Assembly: GCA_023229505.1 (NCBI GenBank)
Contig: JALNZD010000001.1
Span: forward strand, 66,823-130,822
Source: Bacteroidales bacterium
GTDB lineage: Bacteria; Bacteroidota; Bacteroidia; Bacteroidales; JAGOPY01
Direction: 5' to 3'
DNA length: 64,000 bases
The position numbers and the translations under genes were made by a program. Below, piece after piece: positions 2,769-64,000 of the stretch. The notes under the pieces were generated by a model. That model was not told the DNA's origin. It did not search any database and was given only the letters and a program-made list of their open reading frames with translations. The stretch's first letter is position 1, and each line of letters opens with the position of its first letter.

Positions 2769-3713
2769 TTGATGTACCCCTGGGGACATCAACGCCGCTT
2801 TAACTCCTATGCCGAATATTTCAAAAAGCAATTCGGCGGAAGAGTACAAAAATTAGCTATTGACGCCGGGTTTACCTGTCCTAACCGTGATGGGTCCAAG
2901 GGCTTGGGAGGATGCACCTATTGCGATAACGATGCTTTCAATCCCTCCTATTGCCATCCTGAAAAATCAATCCTCACGCAAATTGAAGAAGGAATTGAAT
3001 TCCATGCAAGGAGATACCGACGGGCTTCCCTTTTCCTTGCTTATTTCCAGCCTTATTCCAATACCTATGCCCCGCTGGAAAAACTGAAAGAGATTTACTC
3101 ACAGGCACTGTCTTTCCCGGAGATAATCGGCTTGGTTATCGGTACCCGGCCTGATTGTATTGACGGGGAGAAACTTGAATATTTCCGGAACCTTTCTGAG
3201 TCTCAATATATCATGCTGGAATACGGCATTGAATCGTGCTATAACCGAACCCTGAAAAGGATTAACAGGGGCCATACCTTTGAGGATTCCATCGCTGCAC
3301 TCGGGATGACATCTCAATATGGTATAAAAACCGGTGTTCACCTGATCTTCGGGCTTCCGGGGGAAACAAGGGATGAAATGATGAAAGAAGCTGAGATATT
3401 ATCGGCTTTGAATATCAATAACATTAAATTTCACCAGTTACAAATTATTAAAGGTACCAGGATGGCTGAAGAGTTTAAAATGATGCCTGAAGGTTTTATC
3501 CGGTTTTCCCTGGATGATTACATTGAATTCATTATTGATTTTGTTGAAAAGCTAAATCCGGCTTTCGTAATAGAAAGATTTGCAGGTGAAGTCCCGCCCC
3601 GTTTCCTGGCAGGACCTGGCTGGGGTTTGATCCGCAATGATCAGATCCTGGTTAAGATCGAAAAAAGGATGGAAGAAAGAGGAACTTGGCAAGGTAAGAG
3701 GTTTAAGATTTAA
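2769..3713 (+). CDS. TIGR01212-family radical SAM protein
   Basis: The N-terminus YPWGHQRRFNSYAEYFKKQFGGRVQKLAIDAGFTCPNRDG...GGCTYCDN matches the TIGR01212 (YtqA/YhcC-like) radical SAM pattern. 314 aa. Confidence 0.85.
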   Translation: MMYPWGHQRRFNSYAEYFKKQFGGRVQKLAIDAGFTCPNRDGSKGLGGCTYCDNDAFNPSYCHPEKSILTQIEEGIEFHARRYRRASLFLAYFQPYSNTYAPLEKLKEIYSQALSFPEIIGLVIGTRPDCIDGEKLEYFRNLSESQYIMLEYGIESCYNRTLKRINRGHTFEDSIAALGMTSQYGIKTGVHLIFGLPGETRDEMMKEAEILSALNINNIKFHQLQIIKGTRMAEEFKMMPEGFIRFSLDDYIEFIIDFVEKLNPAFVIERFAGEVPPRFLAGPGWGLIRNDQILVKIEKRMEERGTWQGKRFKI

Positions 3714-3757
3714 GGTTTAAGTTGAGGATTTGAAACTTGAAATTTGAAATTTTTTAC
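3691..3757 (+). repeat. heptanucleotide array straddling the stop codon of the TIGR01212 gene
   Basis: 7-nt phase: aaggtaa gaggttt aagattt aaggttt aagttga ggatttg aaacttg aaatttg aaatttt. Stops at TAA 3711 (frame 0), TAA 3718 (frame +1) and TGA 3731 (frame +2). Ends in a T-run at 3750..3755. Confidence 0.7.
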
Positions 3758-7715: not shown

Positions 7716-8582
7716 CTATTGATGTAAAGTTCCGGCATTAATTACGGGTGCGGCATCCTTGTCTGAACAAAGCACGACCATCAGGTTACTGACCATGGCA
7801 GCTTTTTTATCCTCATCAAAATCGATAATATTCTTTTTTGAGAGCTGCTCTAATGCCATCTCAACCATACTGACAGCGCCTTCGACAATTTTAAAACGTG
7901 CGGCCACAATGGCTGTTGCCTGCTGTCTGCGCAACATGGCGCCGGCAATTTCGGCGGAGTAAGCCAGGTAACTTATCCTTGCCTCGATGATGTGAATTCC
8001 TGCAATTGACAGACGTTCCCTGAGCTCGTTCTCGAGAACATGATTAACTTCTTCTCCCCCGGAACGCAGGCTGATCTCGGCCTGGGCATCATCGAAGTTA
8101 TCATAAGGATAATGCCCTGCTAATTTTCTTATAGCGGATTCGCTCTGGATTTCAACAAAATGACTATAATCATCGACCTCGAAAGCAGCCTTAAAAGTAT
8201 TTTCGACCTTCCAGACCATTACAATCCCGATCATGATAGGATTTCCAACCTTATCATTCACTTTGATCGGTTCGCTGTCGAGGTTCCTGGCCCTGAGCGA
8301 AATCTTCTTTTTAACAAAGAAAGGATTGGCCCAGAAGAACCCATTCACTTTGATTGTGCCGGTATAATCACCGAACAACACCAGGACCATAGATTCATTG
8401 GGATTGACCACCATGAATCCAGGCATCAGAAAGACAGGAATAGCAATGAACGCGAAAATCCAGTCCTTATCCAGCGAAAAAGCCAGTGCAAATATTGCAC
8501 CGAGAAGAATAAAAATGATGGCCAGGAATAGATAGCCACTTTTTGGTGAAAAATTGTTCTCTTTTTCCATTTTAATATTCAT
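7716..8582 (-). CDS. SPFH/band-7 domain membrane protein
   Basis: N-terminal TM helices followed by an SPFH-like core (LDSEPIKVNDKVGNPIMIGIVMVWKV..., AIRKLAGHYPYD, AEIAGAMLRRQQA). The ORF opens with TTG at 8606; the ATG at 8582 or 8570 is a more likely start. Confidence 0.85.
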   Translation of the reverse strand: MNIKMEKENNFSPKSGYLFLAIIFILLGAIFALAFSLDKDWIFAFIAIPVFLMPGFMVVNPNESMVLVLFGDYTGTIKVNGFFWANPFFVKKKISLRARNLDSEPIKVNDKVGNPIMIGIVMVWKVENTFKAAFEVDDYSHFVEIQSESAIRKLAGHYPYDNFDDAQAEISLRSGGEEVNHVLENELRERLSIAGIHIIEARISYLAYSAEIAGAMLRRQQATAIVAARFKIVEGAVSMVEMALEQLSKKNIIDFDEDKKAAMVSNLMVVLCSDKDAAPVINAGTLHQ

Positions 8583-8717
8583 TTTAATATTATTTTGATA
8601 TTGCAATAATACTACTTTTTTTATTACAAAGTCAAGTTTTTATTAAATTATTTTTTTAATGGCACGCGAATGACGCGAATTGAGCGAATTTTAATGGATT
8701 ATCTTACTTTTGTCGGA

Positions 8718-20374: not shown

Positions 20375-22423
20375 ATGGCAGAGGAGAATTTTAATTCACA
20401 GGATAAAGGGGGGAGTAATTTACCAAAAGGTAAAAATACCAGGGCTAAATTCAGTTTCTACTGGATTTATGCCGGTTTACTTTTAGTTTTTATGCTGACT
20501 TATATTGTCAACTGGGAAGGAGGGGCAGCTAAAAAGACTACCTGGGGCGAAGTGAAGGAGATGCTGGAAAATGGTGATATCAGCCGCATCCTTCTGGTCA
20601 ACAAGGAATCGGCAGAAATTTTCCTTAAGCCGGAAAAGATTGATGATCCCAGGTACAAGGAAATAAAAGAGAAGGTCCCTGCCAAAGGGCCTCATTTCAC
20701 GTACAACATCACTTCTCCTGAAAGTTTTGAGAGGCTGGTGATGGAAGCCCAGAAGGACATTGCTGATCCGGTATATATTGAGAACGATGTAAGGCGCAAC
20801 TGGACCGGAGATATTCTGGGATGGGTTGTTCCTGTTGCCATCCTGGTCATTGTCTGGCTGGTTATCATGAGGATGATGAGCCGCAATGCCGGTGGTGCCG
20901 GAGGTCAGATCTTCAACATCGGTAAATCGAAAGCACAATTATTTGATAAGACCACCAGTGTAAGCATTAATTTTAATGATGTGGCAGGGCTTGAGGAAGC
21001 CAAGGTGGAGGTTAAAGAAGTGGTGGATTTTTTAAAGAACCCTTCAAAATATACGGGATTGGGTGGTAAAATTCCCAAGGGAGTCCTTTTGGTAGGTCCT
21101 CCGGGAACCGGAAAGACCTTGCTGGCAAAAGCCGTTGCGGGTGAGGCCCAGGTTCCGTTCTTTTCCCTTTCAGGCTCCGATTTTGTGGAAATGTTTGTGG
21201 GTGTGGGCGCTTCGAGGGTCAGGGACCTTTTTAAGCAAGCTAAAGAAAAAGCCCCCTGCATTGTATTCATCGATGAAATTGATGCCATCGGGCGTGCCAG
21301 GGGAAAGAACCAGATCACCGGCGCCAATGATGAGCGGGAAAGCACGCTGAACCAACTGCTCACCGAGATGGATGGTTTCAGCACTAACTCCGGGGTCATC
21401 ATCATGGCGGCGACAAACCGGGCCGATATCCTTGACAGGGCATTGCTCCGTGCCGGCCGCTTCGATCGTCAGATCAACGTAGAACTACCCGATCTCGAAG
21501 AACGAAGGGCAATTTTCAAAGTGCACACCAAGAACCTGAAATACGACAAGGAAAATGTCGACATGGAATGGCTGGCCAGGCAGACACCCGGTTTTTCCGG
21601 CGCAGACATTGCTAATGTTGCTAATGAATCGGCCCTGATAGCCGCCAGAAACGACAAGAAAATCATCGAAAAGCAGGATTTTGTGGATGCCATCGACCGG
21701 ATTATCGGTGGACTGGAACGACGAAGCAAGATTATTTCACAGGAGGAAAAGCAGGTGATCGCATTCCACGAATCCGGGCATGCATCGGTCAGCTGGTTGC
21801 TGCCGCACGCGCATCCATTAGTCAAAGTGACCATTGTCCCCCGCGGAAAAGCATTGGGCGCAGCGTGGTACCTGCCTGAAGAGAGGCAGCTCACGACTTT
21901 CGAACAGATGTTTGATGAAATGACCGCTACATTAGGCGGCAGGGCAGCGGAAGAGATCATATTCGGGAAGGTTTCAACCGGAGCCCTGAATGACCTGGAA
22001 AGGGTAACCAAACAGGCTTACAATATGGTCGTATTCTTCGGACTGAACGATAAGATCGGCAATATCAGCTATTATGATTCCACGGGGCAGCAGGAATATG
22101 CATTCCAAAAGCCTTACAGTGAAAAAACAGCGGAAGTTATTGACCATGAAATTGGAAAACTGGTCGACCAGGCCTATCGCAGAGCCGTGGAAATCCTTAG
22201 AATTAACAGGGACAAACTCGAGCATCTGGCCCGAATGCTGCTCGAAAAAGAAGTGATATTCGGCGAAGACCTGGAGCCCATCTTCGGGAAAAAGATGAAG
22301 CAGGCGGGGCATGAGATCGTTTTGATCAATATCAAATCAAACGGGAATAATACCATGTCTGAAAAAGCCGAAGATAAAACTCCAAAGAAAAGGGGCAGGA
22401 AGCCGAAGGCAGACAGAGTATAG
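20375..22423 (+). CDS. ftsH: ATP-dependent zinc metalloprotease FtsH
   Basis: [18 protein letters not shown] Walker [10 protein letters not shown] Walker B, SRH region [19 protein letters not shown], zinc site HESGHA. Confidence 0.97.
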
Positions 22424-22495
22424 TCGTCAGTCGTTAGTCGTTAGTGGTTGGTCATTAGGTAGTCAGAAGGTTGTCAGAAGGTAGTCATTAAGAAT
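22421..22495 (+). repeat. 7-nt then 11-nt tandem array starting at the ftsH stop codon
   Basis: tagtcgt cagtcgt tagtcgt tagtggt tggtcat taggtag, then gtagtcagaag gttgtcagaag gtagtcattaag. The core GGTCATTAGGTAGTCA (22450..22465) is the inverted partner (15/16) of 25771..25786. Confidence 0.65.
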
Positions 22496-25725: not shown

Positions 25726-25756
25726 TTGCAATTGAACAATCGAGCAATTGAACAAT

Positions 25757-25801
25757 GTATGACCACTTTATGACCACCTAATGACCACTTTCTGACCATT
25801 T
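25757..25801 (+). repeat. four 11-nt tandem units (tATGACCACtt)
   Basis: tatgaccactt tatgaccacct aatgaccactt tctgaccattt. It is the reverse complement of the array at 22450..22495. It is preceded by the direct repeat GCAATTGAACAAT x2 (about 25727..25756). Confidence 0.65.
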
Positions 25802-34190: not shown

Positions 34191-34320
34191 AGTTGTTAGT
34201 TTAGGTTTTAAGGTTTTAGGTTTAAGGGTTAAGTTTAGGACTTTTTTACTGTCTGTAAATCAAATATTTATATAAATTTCCAGAACTTAAACCTTAACCC
34301 TTAAACCTCAACACTTAAAT
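34191..34320. repeat. pair of inverted heptanucleotide arrays (TAAGGTT-type)
   Basis: Left arm 34191..34239 (agttgtt agtttag gttttaa ggtttta ggtttaa gggttaa gtttagg). Right arm 34286..34320 (cttaaac cttaacc cttaaac ctcaaca cttaaat). A 14-bp perfect complement joins 34220..34233 and 34293..34306. The right arm begins at the aldehyde dehydrogenase stop. Confidence 0.75.
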
Positions 34321-37282: not shown

Positions 37283-37681
37283 ATGATCATAGAGCGATTC
37301 CCTCACAAGTTTGACTGGACCTTTATCGACCAGTTATATGCGCTATACACACATTCATGGCTGAAAGATCCTGTCTATGAAAATATTAATAAGACCATGC
37401 AGGTCGGCCCCTGGTACGGAGATATCATCAATAGGGCAGCACTGAGACATATTTCTCTGGAAGAAGCCCTTATTGAAGAGGGAAAATTCCTTTTTTACCG
37501 GAATGATACGGTGAATTATCTGATCAATTATGGCCAGGATCATTTCAGCCGGATTATTTCAGACAATCCCGTCTGGATGGAACACGTCAGGGGAAAAGCG
37601 ATACAAAAGGGAATTCCGCTGAAAGAGATGATAAGGTTGGATGCGGAGTATATGTGGGAGCAGAAACTTAAGAAGTTTTGA
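37283..37681 (+). CDS. hypothetical protein (or the 3-prime fragment of a larger decayed gene)
   Basis: This is the distal part of ORF 37103..37681, from the internal ATG (MIIERFPHKFDW...). No recognised family. Coding status is uncertain. Confidence 0.3.
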   Translation: MIIERFPHKFDWTFIDQLYALYTHSWLKDPVYENINKTMQVGPWYGDIINRAALRHISLEEALIEEGKFLFYRNDTVNYLINYGQDHFSRIISDNPVWMEHVRGKAIQKGIPLKEMIRLDAEYMWEQKLKKF

Positions 37682-37719
37682 GTGTTAAGTGTTGAGTGTT
37701 AAGTTGGGGACTTTTTTAT
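37679..37719 (+). repeat. heptanucleotide stop-codon array plus a T-run tail
   Basis: TGAGTGT TAAGTGT TGAGTGT TAAGTTG starts at the stop codon, giving stops in frames 0, +1, +2 and 0 at 37679, 37686, 37693 and 37700. It is followed by GGGGACTTTTTTAT. Confidence 0.75.
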
Positions 37720-48334: not shown

Positions 48335-48500
48335 TTCAGGGTGCAATTCGACCTTCATGTTCCATTTTGCATTTTTCATGTTGTATTTTTCATTTGTTGA
48401 GTATTTCATAAATCGTTGGGGTCATTGAAGTGTAATCAGAAGACCTATTTCTTAATTTCAAATTCAATCATTTTTTGTAATTTTATTAAAAATTAGGAAG

Positions 48501-48821
48501 ATGATTGACAATGTTAAAATAATATCTGACTTGAAAAGCCACTTGCTTAAAAACTATGGTAAATCTGTAAATGATGTCGTTTTGTTTGGTTCTCAGGCAC
48601 GTGGCGATTCCAATGAATATTCTGATTTTGATGTTTTAATTGTTTTAGAAAATGATTATTCGGGAAGGGATGAAAATCAAATTCTGGATTTGTGTTATGA
48701 TATTGATTTAAAATATGACATCCTCTTAGATGTTCATCTAATTTCAATTAAAGAATTGACTTCTATTCGTGGGAGACAACCTGTCTTTGTTAATGCTATT
48801 AAATCCGGGATACACGCATGA
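48501..48821 (+). CDS. MNT-type nucleotidyltransferase (antitoxin of a HEPN/MNT type VII TA pair)
   Basis: GSQARGDSNEYSDFDVLIV is the Pol-beta nucleotidyltransferase GS-x-DxD motif. Overlaps the next gene by 4 nt. Confidence 0.85.
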   Translation: MIDNVKIISDLKSHLLKNYGKSVNDVVLFGSQARGDSNEYSDFDVLIVLENDYSGRDENQILDLCYDIDLKYDILLDVHLISIKELTSIRGRQPVFVNAIKSGIHA

Positions 48822-49219
48822 CAATTGAAAGCAACGATAGAGAAAACTTAATTAAATATCGGCTGGAGCAAGCAGAAGAAACAATATCAGATGTTCAACT
48901 TCTTATCGAGAACAACAGATTACGATCAGCAGTTAACCGGATTTATTATGGAATGTTCTATTCTCTTTTAGCGTTGGGATTAGCGAACCAATATGAGGCC
49001 TCGAAACATGCCCAACTTATTGGTTGGTTCAATAAAAACTTCATAAACGAGGGTTTAATTAATTCAAAATATGGCAAAATAATCAATAAAGCATTTAACA
49101 GAAGGACTAAAGGAGATTATGATACCTATGTTGAATTTGAAAAGAACATTGTACTTGAGATGTTTAAAGAAATGCAAGATTTTATATCGGAAATCAAATC
49201 ATACCTTAAAATTCATTAA
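48818..49219 (+). CDS. HEPN domain protein (toxin partner)
   Basis: 133 aa, helical. AVNRIYYGMFYSLLAL and NRRTKGDYD (R-x4-6-H-like region) are typical of HEPN partners of MNT. Confidence 0.82.
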   Translation: MTIESNDRENLIKYRLEQAEETISDVQLLIENNRLRSAVNRIYYGMFYSLLALGLANQYEASKHAQLIGWFNKNFINEGLINSKYGKIINKAFNRRTKGDYDTYVEFEKNIVLEMFKEMQDFISEIKSYLKIH

Positions 49220-54074: not shown

Positions 54075-55406
54075 TCAGACCCTGGATGTCTTCCATTTAC
54101 CGCTTTTAAGGTAAAAATATGACATTCCACCCAGAAGAAAGGCATAAAAGTACTCTGTCATCCAGACGATATAAACTTCCTGCCGTAAAATTTCAGCTAA
54201 TATAAAGGCTGCGGCCAGATAAAAGAAAATGACAACCAGTTCGATAAGGAAGGAAACCTGGGTTTTACCTGTACCGGAAACCGCATTGAAAAAAACATAA
54301 CCCACCGCCAGGAATAATGCAGCCACATTTACAACATAAAGTGCAGGTAACGAAACGCTTATCAGTTCCGGGTCGTTGGTATAAATTTTCAGTGCCAGAC
54401 CAGGAAAGATCAATCCCAGGATTACAATGAACAATACTCCTATGGCACAGAGCCTGGCGACTTTCATAACCAGCGGCATGACTTCTTCCTGCCTGTCCTT
54501 GCCGATCAGATTACTGACCAGGGTGTTGGTGGCGGAACCAAATCCAAACATCGGGATCATCATGATCACGTAGAAGCTGCGGATAATATTTGATACGGCA
54601 AGGGCACGTTCGCCAAGTTTTTCGATAAAAAGAAAAAAAACGAGCCAGGCAGACATGGAAAAGAAGTTCTGCAGCATGACCGGAAATGCCACTTTTATGA
54701 TCCTCTTATATAATACTTCATCGAACCTTGCACGATGAAATAAATTGAATTTTTTTCCATCCTGATTCATCATCGTGAAAACCGTAAAAAATACTGTTGC
54801 TGAAAATTCAGCAATCACAGAAGCCAGCGCAGCACCGCCGATCCCCATTTCAGGTAAACCGAGGTTCCCGAAAATGAGGCCATAATCAAGTACCATATTA
54901 ACTAGTGCCATGAGCAAGGTAGTCCAGATAATGACCTTTGTCCGGGTAATCCCGATATAGAGCCCGCGGAAAAGCATATTAACGCTGGCAAAGAAAATAC
55001 CATAAGAACGGTACCTGATATATTCCTGGGTATATGCATTGACATCTTCCGACTGTATAATATGTTTCAGGATGTCACCCGAAAAAAACTGCATCAGGCT
55101 AAAGAGGGAAAGGGCTAGTGGAAGCTGGAAATAGAACCCATGCTGAAAAGTCCGTCCGATCTCGGCATAGGCCTGCTCACCTTTCCTTCTGGCAATAATG
55201 ATCTGTGTCCCGGTCCCGAAACCCCACGCCAGCATCACCGCTATAAAATAAAAAATCCCGCCGATAGCACCTGCGCCAAGTTCAACCTGCCCGACCCTGC
55301 CCAAAAAAGCAGTGTCAGTGATGTTCAGTAAGTTCTGTGCTACGCTGCCAATAATAATCGGATAAGCAATGAACCAGATCTCACGGTATGTGATTGAGGT
55401 TTTCAC
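54075..55406 (-). CDS. MATE family efflux transporter
   Basis: 443 aa, 12 TM. N-terminus EIWFIAYPIIIGSVAQNLLNITDTAFLGRVG is typical of MATE. GTG start. Confidence 0.9.
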   Translation of the reverse strand: MKTSITYREIWFIAYPIIIGSVAQNLLNITDTAFLGRVGQVELGAGAIGGIFYFIAVMLAWGFGTGTQIIIARRKGEQAYAEIGRTFQHGFYFQLPLALSLFSLMQFFSGDILKHIIQSEDVNAYTQEYIRYRSYGIFFASVNMLFRGLYIGITRTKVIIWTTLLMALVNMVLDYGLIFGNLGLPEMGIGGAALASVIAEFSATVFFTVFTMMNQDGKKFNLFHRARFDEVLYKRIIKVAFPVMLQNFFSMSAWLVFFLFIEKLGERALAVSNIIRSFYVIMMIPMFGFGSATNTLVSNLIGKDRQEEVMPLVMKVARLCAIGVLFIVILGLIFPGLALKIYTNDPELISVSLPALYVVNVAALFLAVGYVFFNAVSGTGKTQVSFLIELVVIFFYLAAAFILAEILRQEVYIVWMTEYFYAFLLGGMSYFYLKSGKWKTSRV

Positions 55407-55577
55407 CAGACTTTAAAGACTAATGGAAATTTTGGTAAATTTACATTTTTTGACGAAAAGCGCAGGGCGTAGGGCATTGGGTAATTAGAATTTTAATTTT
55501 TATTGAATGATCGCTCATCCTGACATCTTTTTTAACTTTACACGATATTATCTGATCCAACAGATAATCAAGAAAGC

Positions 55578-56423
55578 ATGATTCAGGAAGAGTCGTTCAA
55601 GTGCGTCATCAGAAATTACTTTTCAAGGTATCTTGAGCACTTCAGGATAAACCTGGAAAAGGCGATGGAGGAATACGATCCGGAAGCTATCCACGAATAC
55701 AGGGTATCAGTTAAAAGGATTCGCGCTATTATCCGCGCATTGGACCGGGTTTATGATAATCCGCTGTTTTCCGGAAAAATGATCCAGCCTTTGCGGCTGA
55801 TGTTCAAAGCCGGCGGAACGATCCGCGATGACCAGGTGCAGATCGGGCTGGTCGAAAATATAGAGAAAGAATTCGGCCATGCTTTCCCTCTTATCAAAGA
55901 TTATTATTTTAAAAGAATAGAGAATCAAAGGGATTCCTTCTTTTTAAAATCGATTGATTTCGAATATAAATCCATTGATTCCATTTCCCGGCAGATCGAA
56001 AACATTCTTGATCCGCTGGATGATAATTCACTGGAAACAAATCTCTACAACTGGCTCCATGAATCTATGGAGAAACTGAAAAGAAAAAGGTATGACCTTG
56101 AAAAACCTGATAAATTGCACCGTTTCCGCACCCGTTTCAAGGAAAACGGGTATGTCGCGGAGATGATCTTTCAATCCAGATACAGTAACAAGATCTCAAA
56201 GACGGCATATAACCGTATGAAAAATTTTGGCCAGGAGCTCGGTAACTGGCATGATCATTACCAGCTCTGGTCTAAAACAGCGCTCATCTTCCAGGAATCC
56301 CGGAACTTTGACCTGCTGGAAGAGGCATTTGAATTGAGGAAATTTATTACACCCATCCACGATAAGCTATTCCAGGAAATACTTCACCTGATTAAAAGGG
56401 ACGACAGTATTTTTTCTGTTTGA
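55578..56423 (+). CDS. CHAD domain protein
   Basis: EAIHEYRVSVKRIRAIIRAL and the later HRFRTRFKE / LGNWHD helices match CHAD. Confidence 0.78.
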   Translation: MIQEESFKCVIRNYFSRYLEHFRINLEKAMEEYDPEAIHEYRVSVKRIRAIIRALDRVYDNPLFSGKMIQPLRLMFKAGGTIRDDQVQIGLVENIEKEFGHAFPLIKDYYFKRIENQRDSFFLKSIDFEYKSIDSISRQIENILDPLDDNSLETNLYNWLHESMEKLKRKRYDLEKPDKLHRFRTRFKENGYVAEMIFQSRYSNKISKTAYNRMKNFGQELGNWHDHYQLWSKTALIFQESRNFDLLEEAFELRKFITPIHDKLFQEILHLIKRDDSIFSV

Positions 56424-56466
56424 TAAAACAGGGAAAAAGGATACTTATATTGCAGCCAGTCTAAAC

Positions 56467-56500
56467 CAATCCAAAAAGTTTACTTTGGATTGTTGTTTTT
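56467..56500. terminator. hairpin terminator between convergent CHAD and HMA genes
   Basis: The 9-bp stem CAATCCAAA (56467..56475) pairs with TTTGGATTG (56484..56492) across an 8-nt loop, followed by TTGTTTTT. Confidence 0.65.
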
Positions 56501-56556
56501 ATTCACACATTCTATGATTTAAGGTTTGCCAATCCCCCTAATGAAAAAGATGTCTC

Positions 56557-56931
56557 CTAATGATTGTGCATTTCATGGTCTTTTTCCGGCTCTTTTGCAG
56601 CAGGACGATCGTAATGGCAGCAGCCGGGTAATTCATCATAAACCTTATCATCAGCCCGGTACATATCAGTATCATGTCCTACTTTTGCAATGGTGATATT
56701 TATTTTATCCACATCAGTTTTAGTGGAATCATAAGACACATCGATCATTTTTGTCTCTTTGTTCCAATCAGCAGCGGCTACACCTTTGACCGACTTTGCA
56801 GCGGTTTCGATACGTTTTTCGCACATGCCGCAATTTCCGTACACTTTAAACTCTTCCGTTTTGCTTTGAGCGAAAAGTGTCATTGTTCCTAACAGGAACA
56901 GACATCCAAAACTTACCATTTTTACTTTCAT
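56557..56931 (-). CDS. periplasmic heavy-metal-associated (HMA) domain protein
   Basis: Signal peptide MKVKMVSFGCLFLLGTMTLFAQS, the GNCGMCEKRIE metal site, a CC pair and a His-rich tail (DHEMHNH). The ORF is open to 56958, directly abutting the cusB stop. Confidence 0.8.
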   Translation of the reverse strand: MKVKMVSFGCLFLLGTMTLFAQSKTEEFKVYGNCGMCEKRIETAAKSVKGVAAADWNKETKMIDVSYDSTKTDVDKINITIAKVGHDTDMYRADDKVYDELPGCCHYDRPAAKEPEKDHEMHNH

Positions 56932-56958
56932 GTTTCTATTATTTAAGTGATTAAACAT

Positions 56959-58551
56959 TTAATTACGATATAAGCAACATTCAGGCAGATTGTTGTAAAC
57001 TTCATCACTGGCCTTAAACTTTTCTGTATCATGCCCGGCTTGAGCTATGGCCATATGGATGGTGTTAAGATCAGCCAAGGCGTTATCGTATTCCACATGG
57101 ATTTTTTTAGTTTTAACGTCCCAATCAGCAGATGAGACTCCCTGAACAGATTTGGCGGCTTTCTCAATACGTTCCTTGCACATATCGCAGTTGCCTGAAA
57201 CGCCAAACATGGCATGCTGAAAGGTCTGAGTTGAGGTATTCCCTGCAGAAACATTATTTAGGTTTTTATTTAACTCTGGAGCAGCAGGCATATTCATTCC
57301 CGGCATGGTGGATGTTTGTCCGCCCTGACGGTTCATCATGCTGGGCTTACCTTCCAACTGTGCGGCGGCATCAACGCTGAATACGCCCTGCGTGACAATT
57401 TCCTCCCCTTCATTCAATCCATTCATCACTACATAGCTGCTTCCCAACATGGGACCGACTTCTATCTCGCGCATTTTAAACACCGGCTCATCAGTTTCCG
57501 TTTGTTTCACATATACAACAGAGCGTTTGCCCGTCCATAATACCGCAGTGCCGGGAATGATTAAATTGTCATTGTATTGATTGAGGTTTGCCTCAACAAG
57601 GCCGGTTGCAAACATTTCGGGCTTTAATTTTCCGGCCTGGTTGTTGATTTCTACCCGGACTTTTGCGACGCGGGTAACGGGATCGAGCACCGGATCAATA
57701 AAGGAAATATTGTCTGAAAAATTGACTCCAGGCATAGCCTGAACAGTGAAAGTAAGATGATCACCTTTTGCCAGAAAAGGAAGGTCGCTTTCATAGGCAT
57801 CGAACATCACCCATACATGCGAAAGATCTGCCACATCAAATAGTACCGTGCCGGGGGAAATATAATCGCCATTATTGACCCTTCTTGCAGTAACAATACC
57901 GGTTGTATTGGCATATACTTCAAAATCAGATTTGGCAATGCCTGAGCTCTCAATGCCGGCAATCTGATTATCGGTCAGTTTCCACTGGCGAAGTTTATCT
58001 TTTGCTGCCTCATAAAGGATAGGTTGCGATGATTTTGTTTTGGCTGTTTCAAGCAGTTCCTGCTGGGCTGTTATCAAATCGGGTGAATATATTACGGCCA
58101 GCTTTTGTCCTTTTCCGACTGTTTCACCTGTATAGTTTACAAACAATTTTTCAATACGGCCTGGCAGATAAGACACCTGGCTTTGTAACATTCGTTCATC
58201 CGCCTGTACTTTGCCATATAGACGTACTTCTTTTACAGGTTTTTGTCTAGATACTGTTGATGTCAGGACGTTAGCCAACTGAGCAGCTTCCTTGCTCAGG
58301 TGAATGGCATCAGGGTCTGTGGAGGTATTGCTTTGATTGAGTGGAATTAAATCCATGCCACAGATAGGGCATTTGCCCGGTTCGTGCATTCGTATCTGCG
58401 GGTGCATGGCGCAAGTCCAAATCGTGCTTTTAACAGTTTCAACCGTGAGGTCTTGCTTTTCTTCTTTTTGATCCGGGGAATGGAAAAATAACCAACCGAG
58501 AAAAATACCTATTATCAAGGTGATGATATAAAATATTTTTTTTCTTTTCAT
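56959..58551 (-). CDS. cusB: RND efflux periplasmic adaptor (CusB-like) with N-terminal Cys/His metal-binding and C-terminal HMA-like domains
   Basis: MKRKKIFY... TM anchor, CAMHPQIRMHEPGKCPICGMDL, an MFP barrel-sandwich core, and a C-terminal GNCDMCKERIEKAAKSV...CC. The ORF-track extension 58552..58650 is a translation of repeat DNA. Confidence 0.87.
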   Translation of the reverse strand: MKRKKIFYIITLIIGIFLGWLFFHSPDQKEEKQDLTVETVKSTIWTCAMHPQIRMHEPGKCPICGMDLIPLNQSNTSTDPDAIHLSKEAAQLANVLTSTVSRQKPVKEVRLYGKVQADERMLQSQVSYLPGRIEKLFVNYTGETVGKGQKLAVIYSPDLITAQQELLETAKTKSSQPILYEAAKDKLRQWKLTDNQIAGIESSGIAKSDFEVYANTTGIVTARRVNNGDYISPGTVLFDVADLSHVWVMFDAYESDLPFLAKGDHLTFTVQAMPGVNFSDNISFIDPVLDPVTRVAKVRVEINNQAGKLKPEMFATGLVEANLNQYNDNLIIPGTAVLWTGKRSVVYVKQTETDEPVFKMREIEVGPMLGSSYVVMNGLNEGEEIVTQGVFSVDAAAQLEGKPSMMNRQGGQTSTMPGMNMPAAPELNKNLNNVSAGNTSTQTFQHAMFGVSGNCDMCKERIEKAAKSVQGVSSADWDVKTKKIHVEYDNALADLNTIHMAIAQAGHDTEKFKASDEVYNNLPECCLYRN

Positions 58552-58570
58552 AAATTTTATTTTAAAAGAT

Positions 58571-58723
58571 ATAAATAGAAATATAATGGAAATACAATGG
58601 AAATACAATGGAAATATAATGGAAATAAAGCATAAATACAATAGAATCATATTTCCAAGTTTTCAACGTATTTCCATGTATTTCAACATATTTCCATGTA
58701 TTTCAATGTATTTCAAAATTTCC
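58571..58723. repeat. inverted pair of decamer/undecamer arrays filling the cusC-cusB spacer
   Basis: 58571..58640 reads (AATGGAAATAC)n with an 11-nt phase. 58651..58723 reads (TTTCnAnnTA)n with an exact 10-nt phase and the opposite orientation. The last five cusC codons (NFEIH) lie in the array. Confidence 0.8.
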
Positions 58724-60166
58724 TAATCTTTTGAGCCATGCAATGGAAGTGTTGAAATCGGCAATAGCTTCTATTTGCTTGTATTCGTAATCGAGGGTTT
58801 GCTGGCGAATGCGTAAAATATCAGTGAGATCTGAACCGGACGATGCATAACTTTTAAGCATAATATCGAGCGATCTCAAAGCTAGCTGATATTGTTCAGC
58901 ATAGAGTTTTGTACGGCGCTGAGCATCCTGGTATAATTGCATGGCCTGATAATACTCCGTTTGCAATGAATTAGCCGTTGCTTTGTAATATTGTTTATTA
59001 GTCGATTTCAAAAAGTCGGCTTCGGTTTGCATAGCTTTATATTTTTTGCGGTAAATGGGTAAAGTAGCCGTTACCATCGGCATAATCATATCTTTTCCAT
59101 TCATTGAGGAAGTGGACATATCACTTTTACTGATAATCGAATAATTTAAACCTAAACCGAACATAGGATAGCCCATGCGTGTAACCATTTTTTTACGGGC
59201 TTCGAGCGATTGCTGCTCATATTGAATCATCCCCAGCATCGGATTGTTACTTAAAATACTATCCGATACAGCAATCATCGACGGTAAAAAGTTTTCGGCA
59301 ATTAAAGTATCAGGCAGCGAAACCGGCGAATCAGGTGGCCTGTTCAGATAGCTGTTAAATTCGGCAACAGTGGTATTCCATTGGTTTTTTAACAGTTCTA
59401 TATTGTTCAGAAGGTCACCGATTTCAATTTGGATCCTATACACATCAGAAAGCCCTGAACTACCGGAAGATGAACCCATTGAGTTGTCCTGCATTGTTGA
59501 TGCTGCCTGATTTGAAACAGACCCGGCAGTATTGCCCGAAATTCCTCCCATACTTTGCATACCGGAGGATCCGGAAGTAGCACTTTGAGTGGAAGCCGGG
59601 GACATTCTCCTGTTAGGTGTTGCGGTGCCATTCCCTGTCGGAGCGGCTTTGAACCTGACGATGGCCAATCTTTCAATCGTGCGAAGAATCTCGATATTTT
59701 TCTCCGAAATGCGGATATTCTGTTTAACTTTATGCAAATCGTACCATTTGCGTTGTACATCATAAAAGACCTGCAATTTGGCATCGCGAAATGATCCGTA
59801 TTTTGCTTTTGCCATCAGGCTCATTTCATCCTTAGCCGATTTTATCACACCGAACCATGGGAACATTTGCATCAGCCTTATATCAGCCACCTGGTTACCA
59901 CCAATAAGTTCCATGGGGCTGAGGAAGACTCCGAGACTAAAGTCAGGATCGGGTAAGCTGCCAACCTGCGGTACCTTTTGCAAAGCTGCCTCATATTCAA
60001 AATATCGCTGAAGTACTGTTGGGTTGTTTTGAGCAGCAATTTCAAGATAGTTCAGCAATGAGTCGGTTTGGGAATATGCTGATATACATAGAAATAAATA
60101 GAAATACATGGAAATACATGCAATGATATAATTCGTGGAGAATTTGAATTTATTGTTGTTTTTCAT
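58703..60166 (-). CDS. cusC: TolC-family outer membrane efflux protein (CusC-like)
   Basis: 487 aa. TolC-type repeats (LLNYLEIAAQNNPTVL..., IADFNTSIAWLKRL). Contains a Ser/Gly/Met-rich low-complexity insert. Confidence 0.87.
   Translation of the reverse strand: MKNNNKFKFSTNYIIACISMYFYLFLCISAYSQTDSLLNYLEIAAQNNPTVLQRYFEYEAALQKVPQVGSLPDPDFSLGVFLSPMELIGGNQVADIRLMQMFPWFGVIKSAKDEMSLMAKAKYGSFRDAKLQVFYDVQRKWYDLHKVKQNIRISEKNIEILRTIERLAIVRFKAAPTGNGTATPNRRMSPASTQSATSGSSGMQSMGGISGNTAGSVSNQAASTMQDNSMGSSSGSSGLSDVYRIQIEIGDLLNNIELLKNQWNTTVAEFNSYLNRPPDSPVSLPDTLIAENFLPSMIAVSDSILSNNPMLGMIQYEQQSLEARKKMVTRMGYPMFGLGLNYSIISKSDMSTSSMNGKDMIMPMVTATLPIYRKKYKAMQTEADFLKSTNKQYYKATANSLQTEYYQAMQLYQDAQRRTKLYAEQYQLALRSLDIMLKSYASSGSDLTDILRIRQQTLDYEYKQIEAIADFNTSIAWLKRLGNFEIH
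60087..60120. repeat. decamer array (GAAATAnATn x3) inside the cusC signal-peptide coding region
   Basis: cata gaaataaata gaaatacatg gaaatacatg. 60091..60107 is the perfect reverse complement of 60581..60597 and of 60611..60627. Confidence 0.75.
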
Positions 60167-60560
60167 CTTTGGTCAGTTTGATGAAATTGTTTAATCTGAT
60201 TTGAAGATCTTTAGAAACAGTTTTATAATCATCAAAAATTTCTTGGGAGATTTTACCTCGTTCAAATAATAGCTCAAGCCAATGATCGGTGGCTTCAGAC
60301 TGGGATGCCCTCGCATTATAATAAAACCGAACCTTATGCAAATAATGAAATCGGCTATAACCTTCTGCGATGTTCGCTCCAATAGAATCGGTTGAACGGA
60401 TAAACTGATCACCAATGACTTTTTTTTCTTCAAAACTCATTTTTGAATAAATGTTCCAAGCAATAACTGAAAGTTTCCTGGCTAATTGATATACCTTCAA
60501 ATCCTTAACTTGTATGTAGTTTCTACTTCCATTTATTTCATTAATTTCATTTATTTCCAT
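60150..60560 (-). CDS. four-helix-bundle protein (23S rRNA intervening-sequence protein family, TIGR02436-like)
   Basis: 136 aa. DLKVYQLARKL..., STDSIGANIAEGYSRF and YYNARASQSEATDHWLELL match the family. The N-terminus MEINEINEIN is encoded by repeat DNA. The stop overlaps the cusC start by 17 nt. Confidence 0.85.
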   Translation of the reverse strand: MEINEINEINGSRNYIQVKDLKVYQLARKLSVIAWNIYSKMSFEEKKVIGDQFIRSTDSIGANIAEGYSRFHYLHKVRFYYNARASQSEATDHWLELLFERGKISQEIFDDYKTVSKDLQIRLNNFIKLTKDEKQQ

Positions 60561-60632
60561 GTATTTCTATGTATTTCAACGTATTTCTATTTATTTCTAA
60601 GTATTTCTATGTATTTCTATTTATTTCAATTT
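60529..60632. repeat. decamer array (GTATTTCTAT-type, about 10 units)
   Basis: Exact 10-nt phase from 60551 to 60630: ttatttccat gtatttctat gtatttcaac gtatttctat ttatttctaa gtatttctat gtatttctat ttatttcaat. It covers the whole cusA-4HB spacer, the 4HB start and the cusA stop. Confidence 0.82.
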
Positions 60633-63600
60633 CCTTTCCCTCCACATCGCCTGAAACAAAGGAACCACGAAGACTGTCATTACCTGGATAACCATACCAC
60701 CAAACATGGGTATTGCCATTGGGACCATAATATCAGCTCCTTTGCCGTTAGATGATAAGACAGGTAATAAAGCAATGACAGCAACGGCTGTGGTCATCAT
60801 AGCTGGCCTTACACGTTTCAGCCCGGCAGACACTACGGCTTCACGCACTTCATGAACAGTTGCAGGATGCCGCGCTTCAAATACCTGGTGAATATAAGTC
60901 CCCATGATTACGCCATCATTAGTGGCTATACCGAATAAAGCAATAAAACCAACCCAGACTGCCACGCTCAGATTTATCGTGTGCATCTGGAACATATCCC
61001 GCAGGTTTATGCCAGCAACGGAAAAATTAAGAAACCAACCCTGACCATATAACCAGAGCATGATAAATCCACCGGCAAATGCGACGAATACGCCGGAAAA
61101 ATGAATAAATGAGGCCGTAACAGTGCGGAATTGGAAGTACAACAATAACAATATCAATAATAAGCTTATGGGTATGACAATAGCCAGTCTTTTTGTAGCC
61201 CTCAGCTGATGTTCATAATTGCCAGCGAATTTATAAGACACTCCGGCAGGAAGGGTAAGAGATCCTGTATTCAGCTTCTGTTGGATTATTTTAGCTGCTT
61301 CTTCCACTACATCAACTTCTGCTTTTCCTTCTATCTTATCGAATATAACATATCCGACAAGGAAGGTGTTTTCACTCCGGATCATTTGAGCTCCGCGGGT
61401 GTAATCAATATCGGCGATTTCGCCCAAAGGAACCTGGACGCCATTCATTGCCGGGATCAGGATGCGTTTCAGGTCATCAGGATTATCGCGCAACTCACGG
61501 GCATAACGGACCCTGATTGGGAACCTTTCGCGGCCTTCGACCGATGTGGAAAGGCTCATGCCTCCGACAGCCACCTGCAGCACTTCCTGGACATCGCTGA
61601 TACTCATCCCATAACGGGCCATCGCTTCGCGATTGAGGTTGATTTCGAGGTAAGGCGCCCCTACGGCCCGGTCGTAGAACACGGATGATGCTTTGACTGA
61701 CGGCACATCTTTCAGCGCTTGCTCAAACTGCATACCAGCCAGCTCGATGGAGTTGAGATCGGGCCCGTAAACTTTTAAACCCATCGGGGCGCGCATACCG
61801 GTTGAAAGCATCACCAGCCGGGTCTCAATCGGTTGCAGCTTTGGAGCGGAAGTCAGACCAGGGATGTCAGTTACCTTGACTATTTCGTTCCAGATATCCA
61901 GAGGCTTTTTAATCTGCGGACGCCACTGGCGGAAATACTCTCCATTTTCATCTTTTATCAGAAAACTATCTATATTTTTCGAAATATATTGAAATACATT
62001 GAAATACGTTGAAATATTAGAATCCCGTATTTCAGATTTTATCCACTGACCTTTGACTAAAACTAAAAATGTTCCACTTTCTTTATTATACTTTATTTCC
62101 TCAATATTATCGACTGTAACTTTATTTCCATCTATTTCTATTGTATTTCCATCTATTTCTATTGTATTTCCATCTATTTCTATTGTATTTCCATCTATTT
62201 CTATTGTATTTCCATCTATTTCAACCGCATTTCTATTTATTTCTATTGTATTTCTGAATTCCGACAAGTTCAAAATAAAATTCACATTCTTATCTGCCTT
62301 AAACCTTTGTCTATGCCCATTTTCGTTAAGGATGTACTCAGGCCGGTAATTGATAGTATTCTCAAACATTTGCACCGGGGCCGGATCAAGGGCAGAATTA
62401 ACGCGGCCCCATTTACCCACGGCAATTTCGACTTCGGGAATAGCAGAAAGCCGTTTGTCGAGCGTTTCAATGTATTCAAGGTTCTTCTCAATGCTTGAAT
62501 GTGGCATACTGGTGGGCATGAGCAAGAAAGAACCTTCGTTTAATGAAGGCATAAACTCCTTGCCAATTCCCGGAAACGTCTTTACAGGAGCCTGCCAGAT
62601 TGCTGTTTGCCTGAAATTTTTCCAACCCACACTTTCTATACCTGATGCAACAAAACCGAATATTTTATCAAAACCCTGCCAGGCTAACAGACCAAAAAAT
62701 AAAGTGACTGCCGGTATGATCAGGAACTTACTTTTATGTGCCAACGCCCAACGAATAATATCTTCATAATAATGCACCATGGACATCAGGGCAGCAAGAA
62801 TCACAGCAATGATACCACTCACAAAAATGAAATTGATGAAAGTACTGTTATGAGCGCCTAGGGGAAGCCACTCAACTGAGAGATACCAGGCTGCTGCAAG
62901 CACGGTAATGGCAATGTTGATATAGTTAGGAAATTCTTTCCGGTATTCAGGCCAGCGGTAATCGAGCAAATTATTTATACCTACAGCAATTAAAGCCAAT
63001 GCCGGCCAGGTATGCCAGAAAATTATAAACGCTATCCCTGCTATGATAAGGCTTCCGTTCCACACCATTCGGATTTTCTTTTTATCAAAGCGGATATTGA
63101 AGAATATATGCACCAGTGTTGGCAAAACCACGATTCCGAGGATAAATGCAGCGATCAGGGCGAAGGTTTTCGTAAAAGCCAGGGGGTGAAATAATTTACC
63201 TTCGGCGGCCTGCATGGCAAAAACGGGCAGAAAGCTGACAATGGTAGTTGCAATGGAAGTAACCACCGCTGCACGCACTTCGGTAGTGGCCAGGTATATA
63301 ACCTGGAGCAATTTCTTCCCACGGATGCCTAAATTTTCGGGCATTTCCAAATGCCGGAGAATGTTCTCCACATCCACAATCCCAATGTCGACCATTACGC
63401 CAATGGCAATTGCAATACCCGATAAGGCAACGATATTGGCTTCGATGCCGAATAGTCGCATGAGGATGAAAGTCATTAATACGCCAATGGGCAGAAGGCC
63501 CGCTACAATGAGGGATGCTCTCAGGTTCATCACCAGGATAATAATCACAATAATACTGATAAGGATTTCATGCGATAGGGCATATTCAAGCGTTCCGATG

Positions 63601-64000
63601 GTTTCTTTAATCAGCCCGGTACGGTCGTAGAATGGAACAATCGTCACTTTGGAAACTGAACCATCGGGCAGGGTTTTTTGCGGCAAACCGGCTTCTATCT
63701 CTTTTATTTTATCTTTTACATTATTGATGACTTCCATGGGATTTGACCCAAAGCGGGCAACTACTACCGCGCCTACTGCTTCGGAACCCGACTTATCGAG
63801 TCCACCGCGGCGGGTAGCCGGTCCAAATGCAACGCGGGCAACATCTTTAATGCGCACCGGTACATTGTTTCTTACAGCTACGACAGAGATTTCAAGGTCT
63901 TCCAAATTCTTTACATAGCCTAAACCGCGGATAATGTATTCCACATTGTTAATTTCTATAGTTTCCGCACCGATGTCGAGGTTGCTTTTGCGCACGGCAT
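60621..64000 (-). CDS. cusA: CusA/CzcA-family heavy-metal RND efflux pump (5-prime end beyond the window)
   Basis: RND permease motifs throughout (GIAIAIGVMVDIGIV, MLSTGMRAPMGLKVYG, GIATNDGVIM). The frame is open through base 64000. The apparent start at 63995 is an internal GTG (..AVRKSNLDIGAETIE.. lies about 200 residues into CusA homologs). Confidence 0.93.
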   Translation of the reverse strand, partial: AVRKSNLDIGAETIEINNVEYIIRGLGYVKNLEDLEISVVAVRNNVPVRIKDVARVAFGPATRRGGLDKSGSEAVGAVVVARFGSNPMEVINNVKDKIKEIEAGLPQKTLPDGSVSKVTIVPFYDRTGLIKETIGTLEYALSHEILISIIVIIILVMNLRASLIVAGLLPIGVLMTFILMRLFGIEANIVALSGIAIAIGVMVDIGIVDVENILRHLEMPENLGIRGKKLLQVIYLATTEVRAAVVTSIATTIVSFLPVFAMQAAEGKLFHPLAFTKTFALIAAFILGIVVLPTLVHIFFNIRFDKKKIRMVWNGSLIIAGIAFIIFWHTWPALALIAVGINNLLDYRWPEYRKEFPNYINIAITVLAAAWYLSVEWLPLGAHNSTFINFIFVSGIIAVILAALMSMVHYYEDIIRWALAHKSKFLIIPAVTLFFGLLAWQGFDKIFGFVASGIESVGWKNFRQTAIWQAPVKTFPGIGKEFMPSLNEGSFLLMPTSMPHSSIEKNLEYIETLDKRLSAIPEVEIAVGKWGRVNSALDPAPVQMFENTINYRPEYILNENGHRQRFKADKNVNFILNLSEFRNTIEINRNAVEIDGNTIEIDGNTIEIDGNTIEIDGNTIEIDGNKVTVDNIEEIKYNKESGTFLVLVKGQWIKSEIRDSNISTYFNVFQYISKNIDSFLIKDENGEYFRQWRPQIKKPLDIWNEIVKVTDIPGLTSAPKLQPIETRLVMLSTGMRAPMGLKVYGPDLNSIELAGMQFEQALKDVPSVKASSVFYDRAVGAPYLEINLNREAMARYGMSISDVQEVLQVAVGGMSLSTSVEGRERFPIRVRYARELRDNPDDLKRILIPAMNGVQVPLGEIADIDYTRGAQMIRSENTFLVGYVIFDKIEGKAEVDVVEEAAKIIQQKLNTGSLTLPAGVSYKFAGNYEHQLRATKRLAIVIPISLLLILLLLYFQFRTVTASFIHFSGVFVAFAGGFIMLWLYGQGWFLNFSVAGINLRDMFQMHTINLSVAVWVGFIALFGIATNDGVIMGTYIHQVFEARHPATVHEVREAVVSAGLKRVRPAMMTTAVAVIALLPVLSSNGKGADIMVPMAIPMFGGMVIQVMTVFVVPLFQAMWRERKLK
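61981..62256. repeat. in-frame inverted decamer arrays inside cusA, including four perfect 21-nt tandem copies
   Basis: 61981..62020 reads gaaatatatt gaaatacatt gaaatacgtt gaaatattag. The array in 62091..62256 has the opposite orientation. ATCTATTTCTATTGTATTTCC is repeated perfectly four times (62130..62213), encoding GNTIEID x4 on the minus strand. Confidence 0.88.

Follow-up and report, generated by a model that had tools for sequence, protein, structure and literature searches.

What is a small gene of the family found in 23S rRNA intervening sequences (IVSs) doing between two genes of a copper-efflux operon? Genes annotated as 'four helix bundle protein' belong to the most common small genes without an explanation in Bacteroidota and Cyanobacteriota, and to our knowledge neither the rRNA IVSs nor the short tandemly repeated repetitive (STRR)-type repeats have been given an origin or function in about 35 years. 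One four-helix-bundle (4HB) gene lies in a stretch of 64,000 nt of DNA from a Bacteroidales bacterium (contig JALNZD010000001.1 of assembly GCA_023229505.1; this whole stretch is the window below), where the gene order on the minus strand between 56.5 and 64 kb is cusA, a 136-aa 4HB gene, cusC, cusB and a gene with an HMA domain. An earlier note, made from the letters of the window, had pointed to arrays of a short repeat in opposite orientations on either side of the gene and had proposed an IVS-type cassette living in an mRNA operon. Is the gene a part of the host operon? Or is it the cargo of an element that has settled there? Here we investigate the locus, its relatives and the surroundings of other members of the protein family. 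Our conclusion is that the locus is probably one copy of a widespread type of cassette, a selfish IVS-type element with arms that pair in RNA. The cassette comprises a PF05635 gene between a purine-rich array of short units and a complementary array, which is the architecture of the open reading frame (ORF)-bearing 23S rRNA IVSs.

The ORF had been assigned to the 4HB family in the earlier note on the strength of two motifs. Both are present, and the protein matches both family profiles above their curated cut-offs: PF05635 (E 9.3e-23, 80.9 bits, cut-off 33.8) and TIGR02436 (E 2.5e-20, 72.7 bits, cut-off 24). The protein of PDB entry 2rld, which has five chains, is a sequence relative (E 1e-7), and from this relationship the window protein is predicted to adopt the four-helix-bundle fold and may be a homopentamer. 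It contains no cysteine and no metal-binding motif. The ORF follows the cusA stop codon (60621-60623) and overlaps the first ATG of cusC, at 60166, by 17 nt, as had been reported; from this overlap the start of cusC is predicted to be translationally coupled to the 4HB stop.

The arrays flanking the gene are made of a degenerate decamer (Table 1). Tandem Repeats Finder (TRF) identifies both of them with a period of 10, at 3.6 copies on the cusC side and 10.8 copies on the cusA side, copy numbers that may be imprecise because independent assemblies of the locus (at the end of L002 and the start of L003) break inside the decamer arrays. The 17-nt inverted repeat described before is indeed perfect, with GAAATAAATAGAAATAC (60091-60107) being the exact complement of 60581-60597 and again of 60611-60627. 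The best pair of arms, 60081-60119 and 60569-60607, extends over 39 nt at 90% complementarity. When the minus-strand RNA of the region was folded, a check that the earlier note had proposed, the arms paired across the gene in the minimum-energy structure (-126 kcal/mol, z -3.65) and formed a closing stem. These arms are also coding sequence. The last cusA codons, TTG AAA TAA, form a unit of the 5' arm, the 4HB N-terminus MEINEINEING is encoded by the 5' array, and the reverse array at the 3' side codes for the hydrophobic core, ISMYFYLFLCIS, of the signal peptide of cusC. The start sites chosen by the gene caller are shifted by the arrays, such that cusC is called at 468 aa instead of 487 aa.

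Table 1. Features of the cus operon of the window and its decamer arrays (positions in the window; 5' and 3' refer to the transcript).
Feature	Position	Strand	Remarks
4HB gene (PF05635 / TIGR02436)	60150..60560	-	136 aa; first 10 codons array-encoded; stop overlaps cusC start
5' arm around 4HB gene	60527..60632	-	~10.8 units GAAAUAnAUn; from last cusA codons and stop into 4HB start
3' arm around 4HB gene	60084..60119	-	~3.6 units of the complement nAUnUAUUUC; inside cusC codons
Cargo-less pair in cusA, forward arm	62123..62254	-	in frame; period 21 nt = 7 aa, NTIEIDG x5
Cargo-less pair in cusA, reverse arm	61981..62016	-	in frame, ISTYFNVFQYIS; 106 nt downstream of forward arm
Cargo-less hairpin cusC-cusB, forward arm	58650..58716	-	overlaps cusC stop; loop almost nil
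Cargo-less hairpin cusC-cusB, reverse arm	58567..58646	-	upstream of likely cusB start
cusA-type RND pump	60621..63995	-	PF00873; cut by window end; 1352 aa at full length on L002
cusC-type outer-membrane factor	58703..60166	-	PF02321; 487 aa counted from first ATG
cusB-type membrane-fusion protein	56959..58650	-	HlyD_D23, HMBD, HMA; likely start MKRKK at ~58552
HMA-domain gene	56557-56958	-	downstream of cusB

Within the window the decamer is confined to this operon but not to the surroundings of the 4HB gene. A two-unit probe, GAAATANATNGAAATA, allowed at most one mismatch, has 25 matches, where shuffled sequence leads one to expect 0.14, and all 25 fall within 58568-62243, the cus operon, where they make up three forward/reverse pairs on the transcript strand. 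Two of these pairs, which the earlier note had not mentioned, carry no cargo: the one between cusC and cusB (fold z -5.3) and the one inside cusA (z -2.0). The pair inside cusA is present in 6 operons, in which the segment measures 108-136 aa (136 aa here) versus a uniform 53 aa in 30 other operons. A simple hairpin insertion was considered for this pair and rejected, the loop holding the native KYNxEKExF, such that the arrays flank host sequence. An Rfam search of 55000-64000 returned no known RNA family.

Is such packaging a property of this one locus or of the gene family? The window and about 1 Mb of related loci contain no other 4HB gene, and the check suggested by the earlier note, for inverted arrays flanking TIGR02436/PF05635 genes, was applied to other genomes. 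A gene counted as bracketed when its flank inverted-repeat score reached 12 or more, and other ORFs of the same plasmid loci served as controls; by this measure complementary tandem arrays bracket 12 of 17 plasmid PF05635 genes versus 2 of 58 control ORFs (Mann-Whitney p 5e-4). In the bracketed plasmid genes it is the purine-rich arm that abuts the start. The unit is GCAGGGGA at eight loci of differing gene contexts, and ACAGGTG, AGTCAGG, GGGAAAA or TAGGGTG at others. Relatives of 2rld provided a further sample of five Bacteroides-type loci, on contigs for which the nearest relatives with a name are Bacteroides, Phocaeicola and Bacteroidaceae. They occupy two contexts, one between an araD-like aldolase gene and araA and the other between aminotransferase and DAHP synthase genes of an aromatic amino-acid operon. 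The 4HB genes of the two contexts are 79% identical, yet all five loci have the same (AATTGAC)x4 / (GTCAATT)x4 arms, which amounts to near-identical packaging in different host operons; none of 115 control positions reaches their score, and the fold z-score of the cassette is -7.9. In IMG/VR, inverted arrays accompany 6 of 9 evaluable copies and add the units AGTTAGG and TTCGGCN.

The eighteenth hit of the plasmid sampling, from Azospirillum lipoferum, is a 4HB ORF inside a 23S rRNA gene, at a position consistent with helix 45. The arms of this IVS are 36 nt long with 86% complementarity and consist of 7/14-nt tandem units; they enclose the ORF, which starts in the arm, and the fold z-score is -11. 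A genuine 23S rRNA IVS with this ORF is thus built like the cassettes in mRNA operons, which supports the earlier proposal of an IVS-type cassette outside rRNA. Altogether ten different repeat units have been found around 4HB genes, with each 4HB subfamily having its own, and the repeat-armed packaging is found in three phyla, where it occurs on plasmids, within further operons and in one true rRNA IVS. It is shared by unrelated family members from Bacteroidota, Cyanobacteriota, a GC-rich lineage and the Azospirillum IVS, in ara, aro, CRISPR-cas, par, type IV secretion system (T4SS) and 23S rRNA contexts. The arms covary between loci, as in L261 (GCAGAGGA/TCCTCTGC), in L262, where the 7-mer unit is in both arms, and in L285, where AATGGAC/GTCCATT is compensatory. 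The purine-rich arm is upstream on the sense strand in 23 of 24 cassettes, a strand rule that favours a role at the level of RNA.

Two of the cyanobacterial plasmid copies (L271, 1995-2363, and L277, 2001-2360) lie between cas6 and cas4 of type I-D CRISPR-cas loci. One has inverted ACAGGTG arrays; the other has (CTAAAAG)x16 and (CCAAAAG)x10 in the same orientation.

The rRNA IVS provides a precedent in which a 28-bp terminal stem is cut internally by RNase III and the S23p ORF lies in the loop (PMC4990558). As in the 23S rRNA IVSs of Leptospira and Coxiella, complementary termini at the cus locus flank an ORF of the same protein family and close a long stem with the ORF in its loop, here by arms of 39 nt that pair in the minimum-energy fold. 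Unlike those IVSs, the cus copy is located in an mRNA operon, between cusA and cusC, and not in helix 9, 25 or 45 of 23S rRNA, and its arms extend into coding sequence in three genes, such that excision would damage cusC. The tandem-repeat build of the arms has no mention in the IVS paper (PMC4990558), yet it is seen in the Azospirillum IVS.

How regularly is the 4HB gene found in cus operons, and has it moved? Close homologues of the protein number in the hundreds, with at least 75% identity for each of the best 120, and the order cusA-4HB-cusC-cusB is conserved in 7 of 7 close homologues that were looked up. GAAATA arrays are present at the same junctions in the relatives, with a conserved GAAATA core and drifting spacers, and their arrangement varies: forward-4HB-reverse, forward-reverse-4HB-reverse, or forward-reverse-4HB-forward-reverse. 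Species-representative genomes were scanned with the cusA C-terminus, yielding 80 loci from Bacteroidales with 82-93% identity in this part of the gene. Eight of these have an intact 4HB gene and one (L051) a pseudogene; the gene is carried by about 1 in 8 related cus operons. GAAATA arrays accompany all eight intact genes, so the finding that the earlier note would have held against its proposal, a relative keeping the gene at this junction without repeats, was not encountered. Where the gene is not intact, the junction has arrays in no loci other than L019 and L074, which have remnants, L066, a possible remnant, and L020, where the contig ends. The 4HB copy of L068 is internally deleted and decayed and has degenerate arrays, while in L074, and perhaps in L066, only the 4HB tail is left. 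In L019 (1060-1300) cusA has been joined, in frame and by a deletion, to the final 4HB codons (…RERGLNNFIKMTKDENQKK*), with the cusC start and the reverse array kept. Most relatives with the gene or a remnant of it have, at the 5' end of cusC, a complementary array, and this cusC-side reverse array, the equivalent of the 3' arm in Table 1, persists in relatives after loss of the gene. The remaining loci that lack the 4HB gene have either a direct overlap of cusA and cusC or another hairpin, CACATAG x3 / CTATGTG x3. Two tail types of the 4HB protein occur among the relatives. The possibility that the 'clean' cusA tails derive from 4HB tails was considered, and the similarity was too weak to claim it.

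On the cusC tree the presence of the 4HB gene is scattered, and 4HB identity does not track cusC identity. Against orthologues dN/dS is 0.04-0.12 (for L012 versus L013, dN is 0.013 and dS 0.318). The protein is under purifying selection yet dispensable, being patchily distributed and represented by pseudogenes and remnants. Such a distribution, with eight intact genes and one pseudogene in 80 operons, is sporadic in the way described for ORF-bearing IVSs, which are regarded as selfish (PMC4990558). We infer that the cassette is selfish and was at least formerly mobile. Of what the earlier note had proposed, the idea of an IVS-type cassette outside rRNA is supported; at this locus the cassette is an old resident of a fixed site and not a recent insertion. 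The term 'non-autonomous' was a guess; purifying selection acts on the gene, and there are cargo-less copies of the arms.

The following mechanism is proposed. In a read-through transcript of the operon the two arms would anneal, with several registers possible, into a long stem. This stem would close off the 4HB message and, by analogy with the rRNA IVSs, would be a plausible substrate for RNase III. The element appears to have become locked into the cus operon, where its 3' arm codes for the cusC signal peptide and the last 4HB codons hold the cusC start. Pairing of the arms may modulate the translation or stability of 4HB and cusC instead of cleanly excising the gene, modulation being favoured because a cut in the stem would sever the cusC message. 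The 4HB tail and the 3' arm would persist after deletion of the gene because cusC needs them. The two other array pairs of the operon would be cargo-less relatives of the 4HB arms.

Several observations weigh against a selfish element that acts through paired arms. Three plasmid 4HB genes (L265, L274 and L277) have arrays in the same orientation, which cannot pair, and flanking arrays are absent from two plasmid copies and three IMG/VR copies. Mismatches between the arms are of the G.U type in 37 cases versus 25 of the A.C type, a difference that is not significant and is blurred by register slippage. Sampling followed sequence similarity, and the samples lack phylogenetic independence. At the source locus the cusC start codon is in the loop and the 3' arm is in codons of the cusC signal peptide, such that a cut by RNase III would sever cusC; clean excision of the 4HB message by the arms, as the earlier note had envisaged, is unlikely for this reason. 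The cus operons always hold the gene at one site and in one orientation. Finally, the comparison of cusA-cusC junctions that had been suggested as a search for an empty site revealed no target-site duplication and no precise empty site at the junctions compared; the losses are imprecise deletions, which in L019, L068 and L074 left the 4HB tail behind. Turnover at a site, which speaks for the element, is seen in cyanobacterial plasmids: at one orthologous intergenic site pNPUN02 has a cassette, pCC7120alpha a cargo-less heptamer hairpin and pC052_A a cargo-less hairpin of AGTCAGAATTCAGG, a unit shared with the arrays around the pNPUN01 4HB gene. There the whole spacer has been replaced, and no target-site duplication was recognised.

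Some of these points would be accommodated if the element acted at the DNA level or through a bound protein, which we consider possible but distinctly less probable than pairing in RNA. The arrays would then be iterated binding sites, in DNA or RNA, or recombination termini; the binder would be the pentameric 4HB protein itself or another factor, and complementarity would be a by-product of arm copying. This would explain why the arms are tandem arrays and not arbitrary complementary sequence, why drift affects the spacers but leaves the GAAATA core conserved, and why each 4HB subfamily has its own unit. It would also fit the same-orientation arrays around three family members and the lack of a significant G.U excess, as well as the five chains of 2rld and a relative from Xanthomonas that was reported as a homopentamer (PMC4990558). 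The upstream position of the purine-rich arm in nearly all cassettes is strand-specific, however, and more easily explained in RNA, and the stems of true rRNA IVSs are cleaved by RNase III (PMC4990558).

Hairpins of related form also occur without the gene. Well-known hairpin repeats that resemble MITEs (miniature inverted-repeat transposable elements) and are co-transcribed with operons include the Correia elements (CREE) of Neisseria, ERIC and REP/BIME, and the Rickettsia palindromic elements (RPEs) are found in frame within genes. Compared with what is generally known of these, the arrays are alike in being dispersed intergenic hairpins, and the copy in cusA is kept in frame as in the RPEs. 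They differ from MITEs in that the arms are multi-register tandem arrays and not unique terminal inverted repeats, that no target-site duplication has been seen, that the loop of the cusA copy keeps native sequence and that the cargo-bearing form encodes no known transposase. A metagenome scan for the compact GAAATA hairpin gave, among the 80 matches listed, 5 in cus operons and 75 elsewhere; none of these 75 is accompanied by a 4HB gene and 71 of them are intergenic, and among the same matches subfamilies with common loops or common outer flanks can be recognised. Inverted tandem arrays of other units are found upstream of cusA in several loci. The arms belong to a dispersed family of tandem-repeat hairpins, because cargo-less hairpins of GAAATA and of other units occur elsewhere. 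A scan of IMG/VR for GAAATA arrays was discarded as too unspecific in its pattern: all that it matched were perfect tandem repeats of an unrelated kind, in giant-virus bins rich in AT, and these lacked inverted partners as well as cus and 4HB genes.

Cyanobacterial STRRs are short tandem heptamers, often in convergent pairs that can form hairpins, located between genes including hupS and hupL (PMC2670836). To judge from the title of a reference cited in PMC4046671, an STRR has also been described inside an RNase P RNA gene. In Xanthomonas, GGGAATC arrays are paired (PMC4692102). The 10-11-nt units of the cus operon, with their three forward/reverse pairs, resemble STRRs in form only, the STRR family having been defined in cyanobacteria. 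Unlike the STRR and GGGAATC arrays, which were reported as cargo-less and without a link to PF05635, the 10-11-mer arrays of Bacteroidota enclose a gene. It is conceivable, though we consider it improbable, that tandem-repeat hairpins generally have PF05635 proteins as their trans-acting partner, and that rRNA IVSs, STRRs, GGGAATC pairs and GAAATA hairpins are a single class of mobile element that had gone unrecognised. A pentameric ring might then read the iterated units of its own arms, somewhat as TRAP reads spaced triplets, and the protein might propagate or maintain pairs of arms with or without cargo. The class would have gene-bearing and gene-less forms and would include the in-frame copies inside genes.

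Could the 4HB protein instead be an accessory or regulator of the Cus pump, with the hairpins as ordinary intercistronic elements of stability or coupling? Its fixed position and orientation, the overlap with cusC, the strong purifying selection and its conservation over many metagenome-assembled genomes (MAGs) would all be expected of a host component, and for the STRR hairpins between cyanobacterial hupS and hupL a role in transcript stabilisation or translational coupling has been proposed (PMC2670836). We nevertheless regard this as unlikely. The great majority of otherwise near-identical operons do without the gene, pseudogenes and deletion remnants of it are found, the same packaging recurs in contexts from ara and aro to 23S rRNA, and the protein lacks the cysteines or metal-binding motif mentioned above.

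Coincidence, in which the 4HB gene would just happen to lie between two of the many intergenic tandem-repeat hairpins that fill these genomes, is already disfavoured and seems to us very improbable. It gains from the dispersed GAAATA hairpins and from inverted arrays of other units at 34199-34319, upstream of cusA and, as CACATAG, at junctions without the 4HB gene. Against it stand the low counts for the controls of the plasmid and Bacteroides-type loci, the occurrence of junction arrays with the 4HB gene or its remnants, and the identical arms that travel with the gene to different operons. A switch by DNA inversion or the remains of a diversity-generating retroelement (DGR) can be all but dismissed: inverted repeats do flank a short segment, and the DGR accessory protein Avd has a homologous four-helix-bundle fold, with weak matches of two relatives to the NCBIfam Avd model, but the window protein has no match to that model, cusA and cusC are its immediate neighbours, with no adjacent reverse transcriptase or template/variable repeats, and a single orientation is seen in all 4HB-bearing cus loci examined.

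In the literature searched, coverage of which is incomplete such that a prior description is possible, nothing was found that links PF05635 genes to tandem-repeat arms; the earlier note had likewise known of no such cassette. If the packaging is as regular as it appears in mRNA operons, on plasmids and in rRNA, then 4HB genes, IVSs and STRR repeats would be a single linked puzzle, and all three would become testable in culturable carriers such as Bacteroides and Nostoc. The cus locus also illustrates how an element may become locked into a host operon, with an arm that encodes a signal peptide and with repeats in frame inside an RND (resistance-nodulation-division) pump. For annotation, the arrays are a recurrent source of assembly breaks and of wrongly called start codons.

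Some further observations concern the related operons and the rest of the window. The cusA C-terminus is 82-93% identical across MAGs of different Bacteroidales families and in a MAG of Candidatus Marinimicrobia (L055), which indicates horizontal spread of the operon, or mis-binning. A near-identical CACATAG/CTATGTG hairpin is located just past the cusA stop in L022, L026, L027, L030 and L035. The cusC tree does not group these operons as nearest neighbours, which suggests a further family of dispersed hairpins. Upstream of cusA in L013 (334-915), a 24-mer, TGATGTGATGATTAGTTGATTAGC, is repeated 14.8 times and is followed by 23.5 copies of CATCACCA, the two forming an inverted pair. In the window, a heptamer hairpin without cargo lies between two minus-strand genes at 34199-34319, consisting of (GTTTAAG)x5.7, 48 nt and (CTTAAAC)x4.9. 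Further intergenic arrays of 7-12-nt units are found at 22421-22487, 25729-25798, 37673-37704, 48354-48397, 3702-3752 and 8568-8690, and the genome seems generally rich in short tandem arrays. Lastly, a PF01909 nucleotidyltransferase gene and a PF05168 HEPN gene with overlapping stop and start codons lie on the plus strand at 48501-49219, in the usual form of an MNT/HEPN toxin-antitoxin pair.

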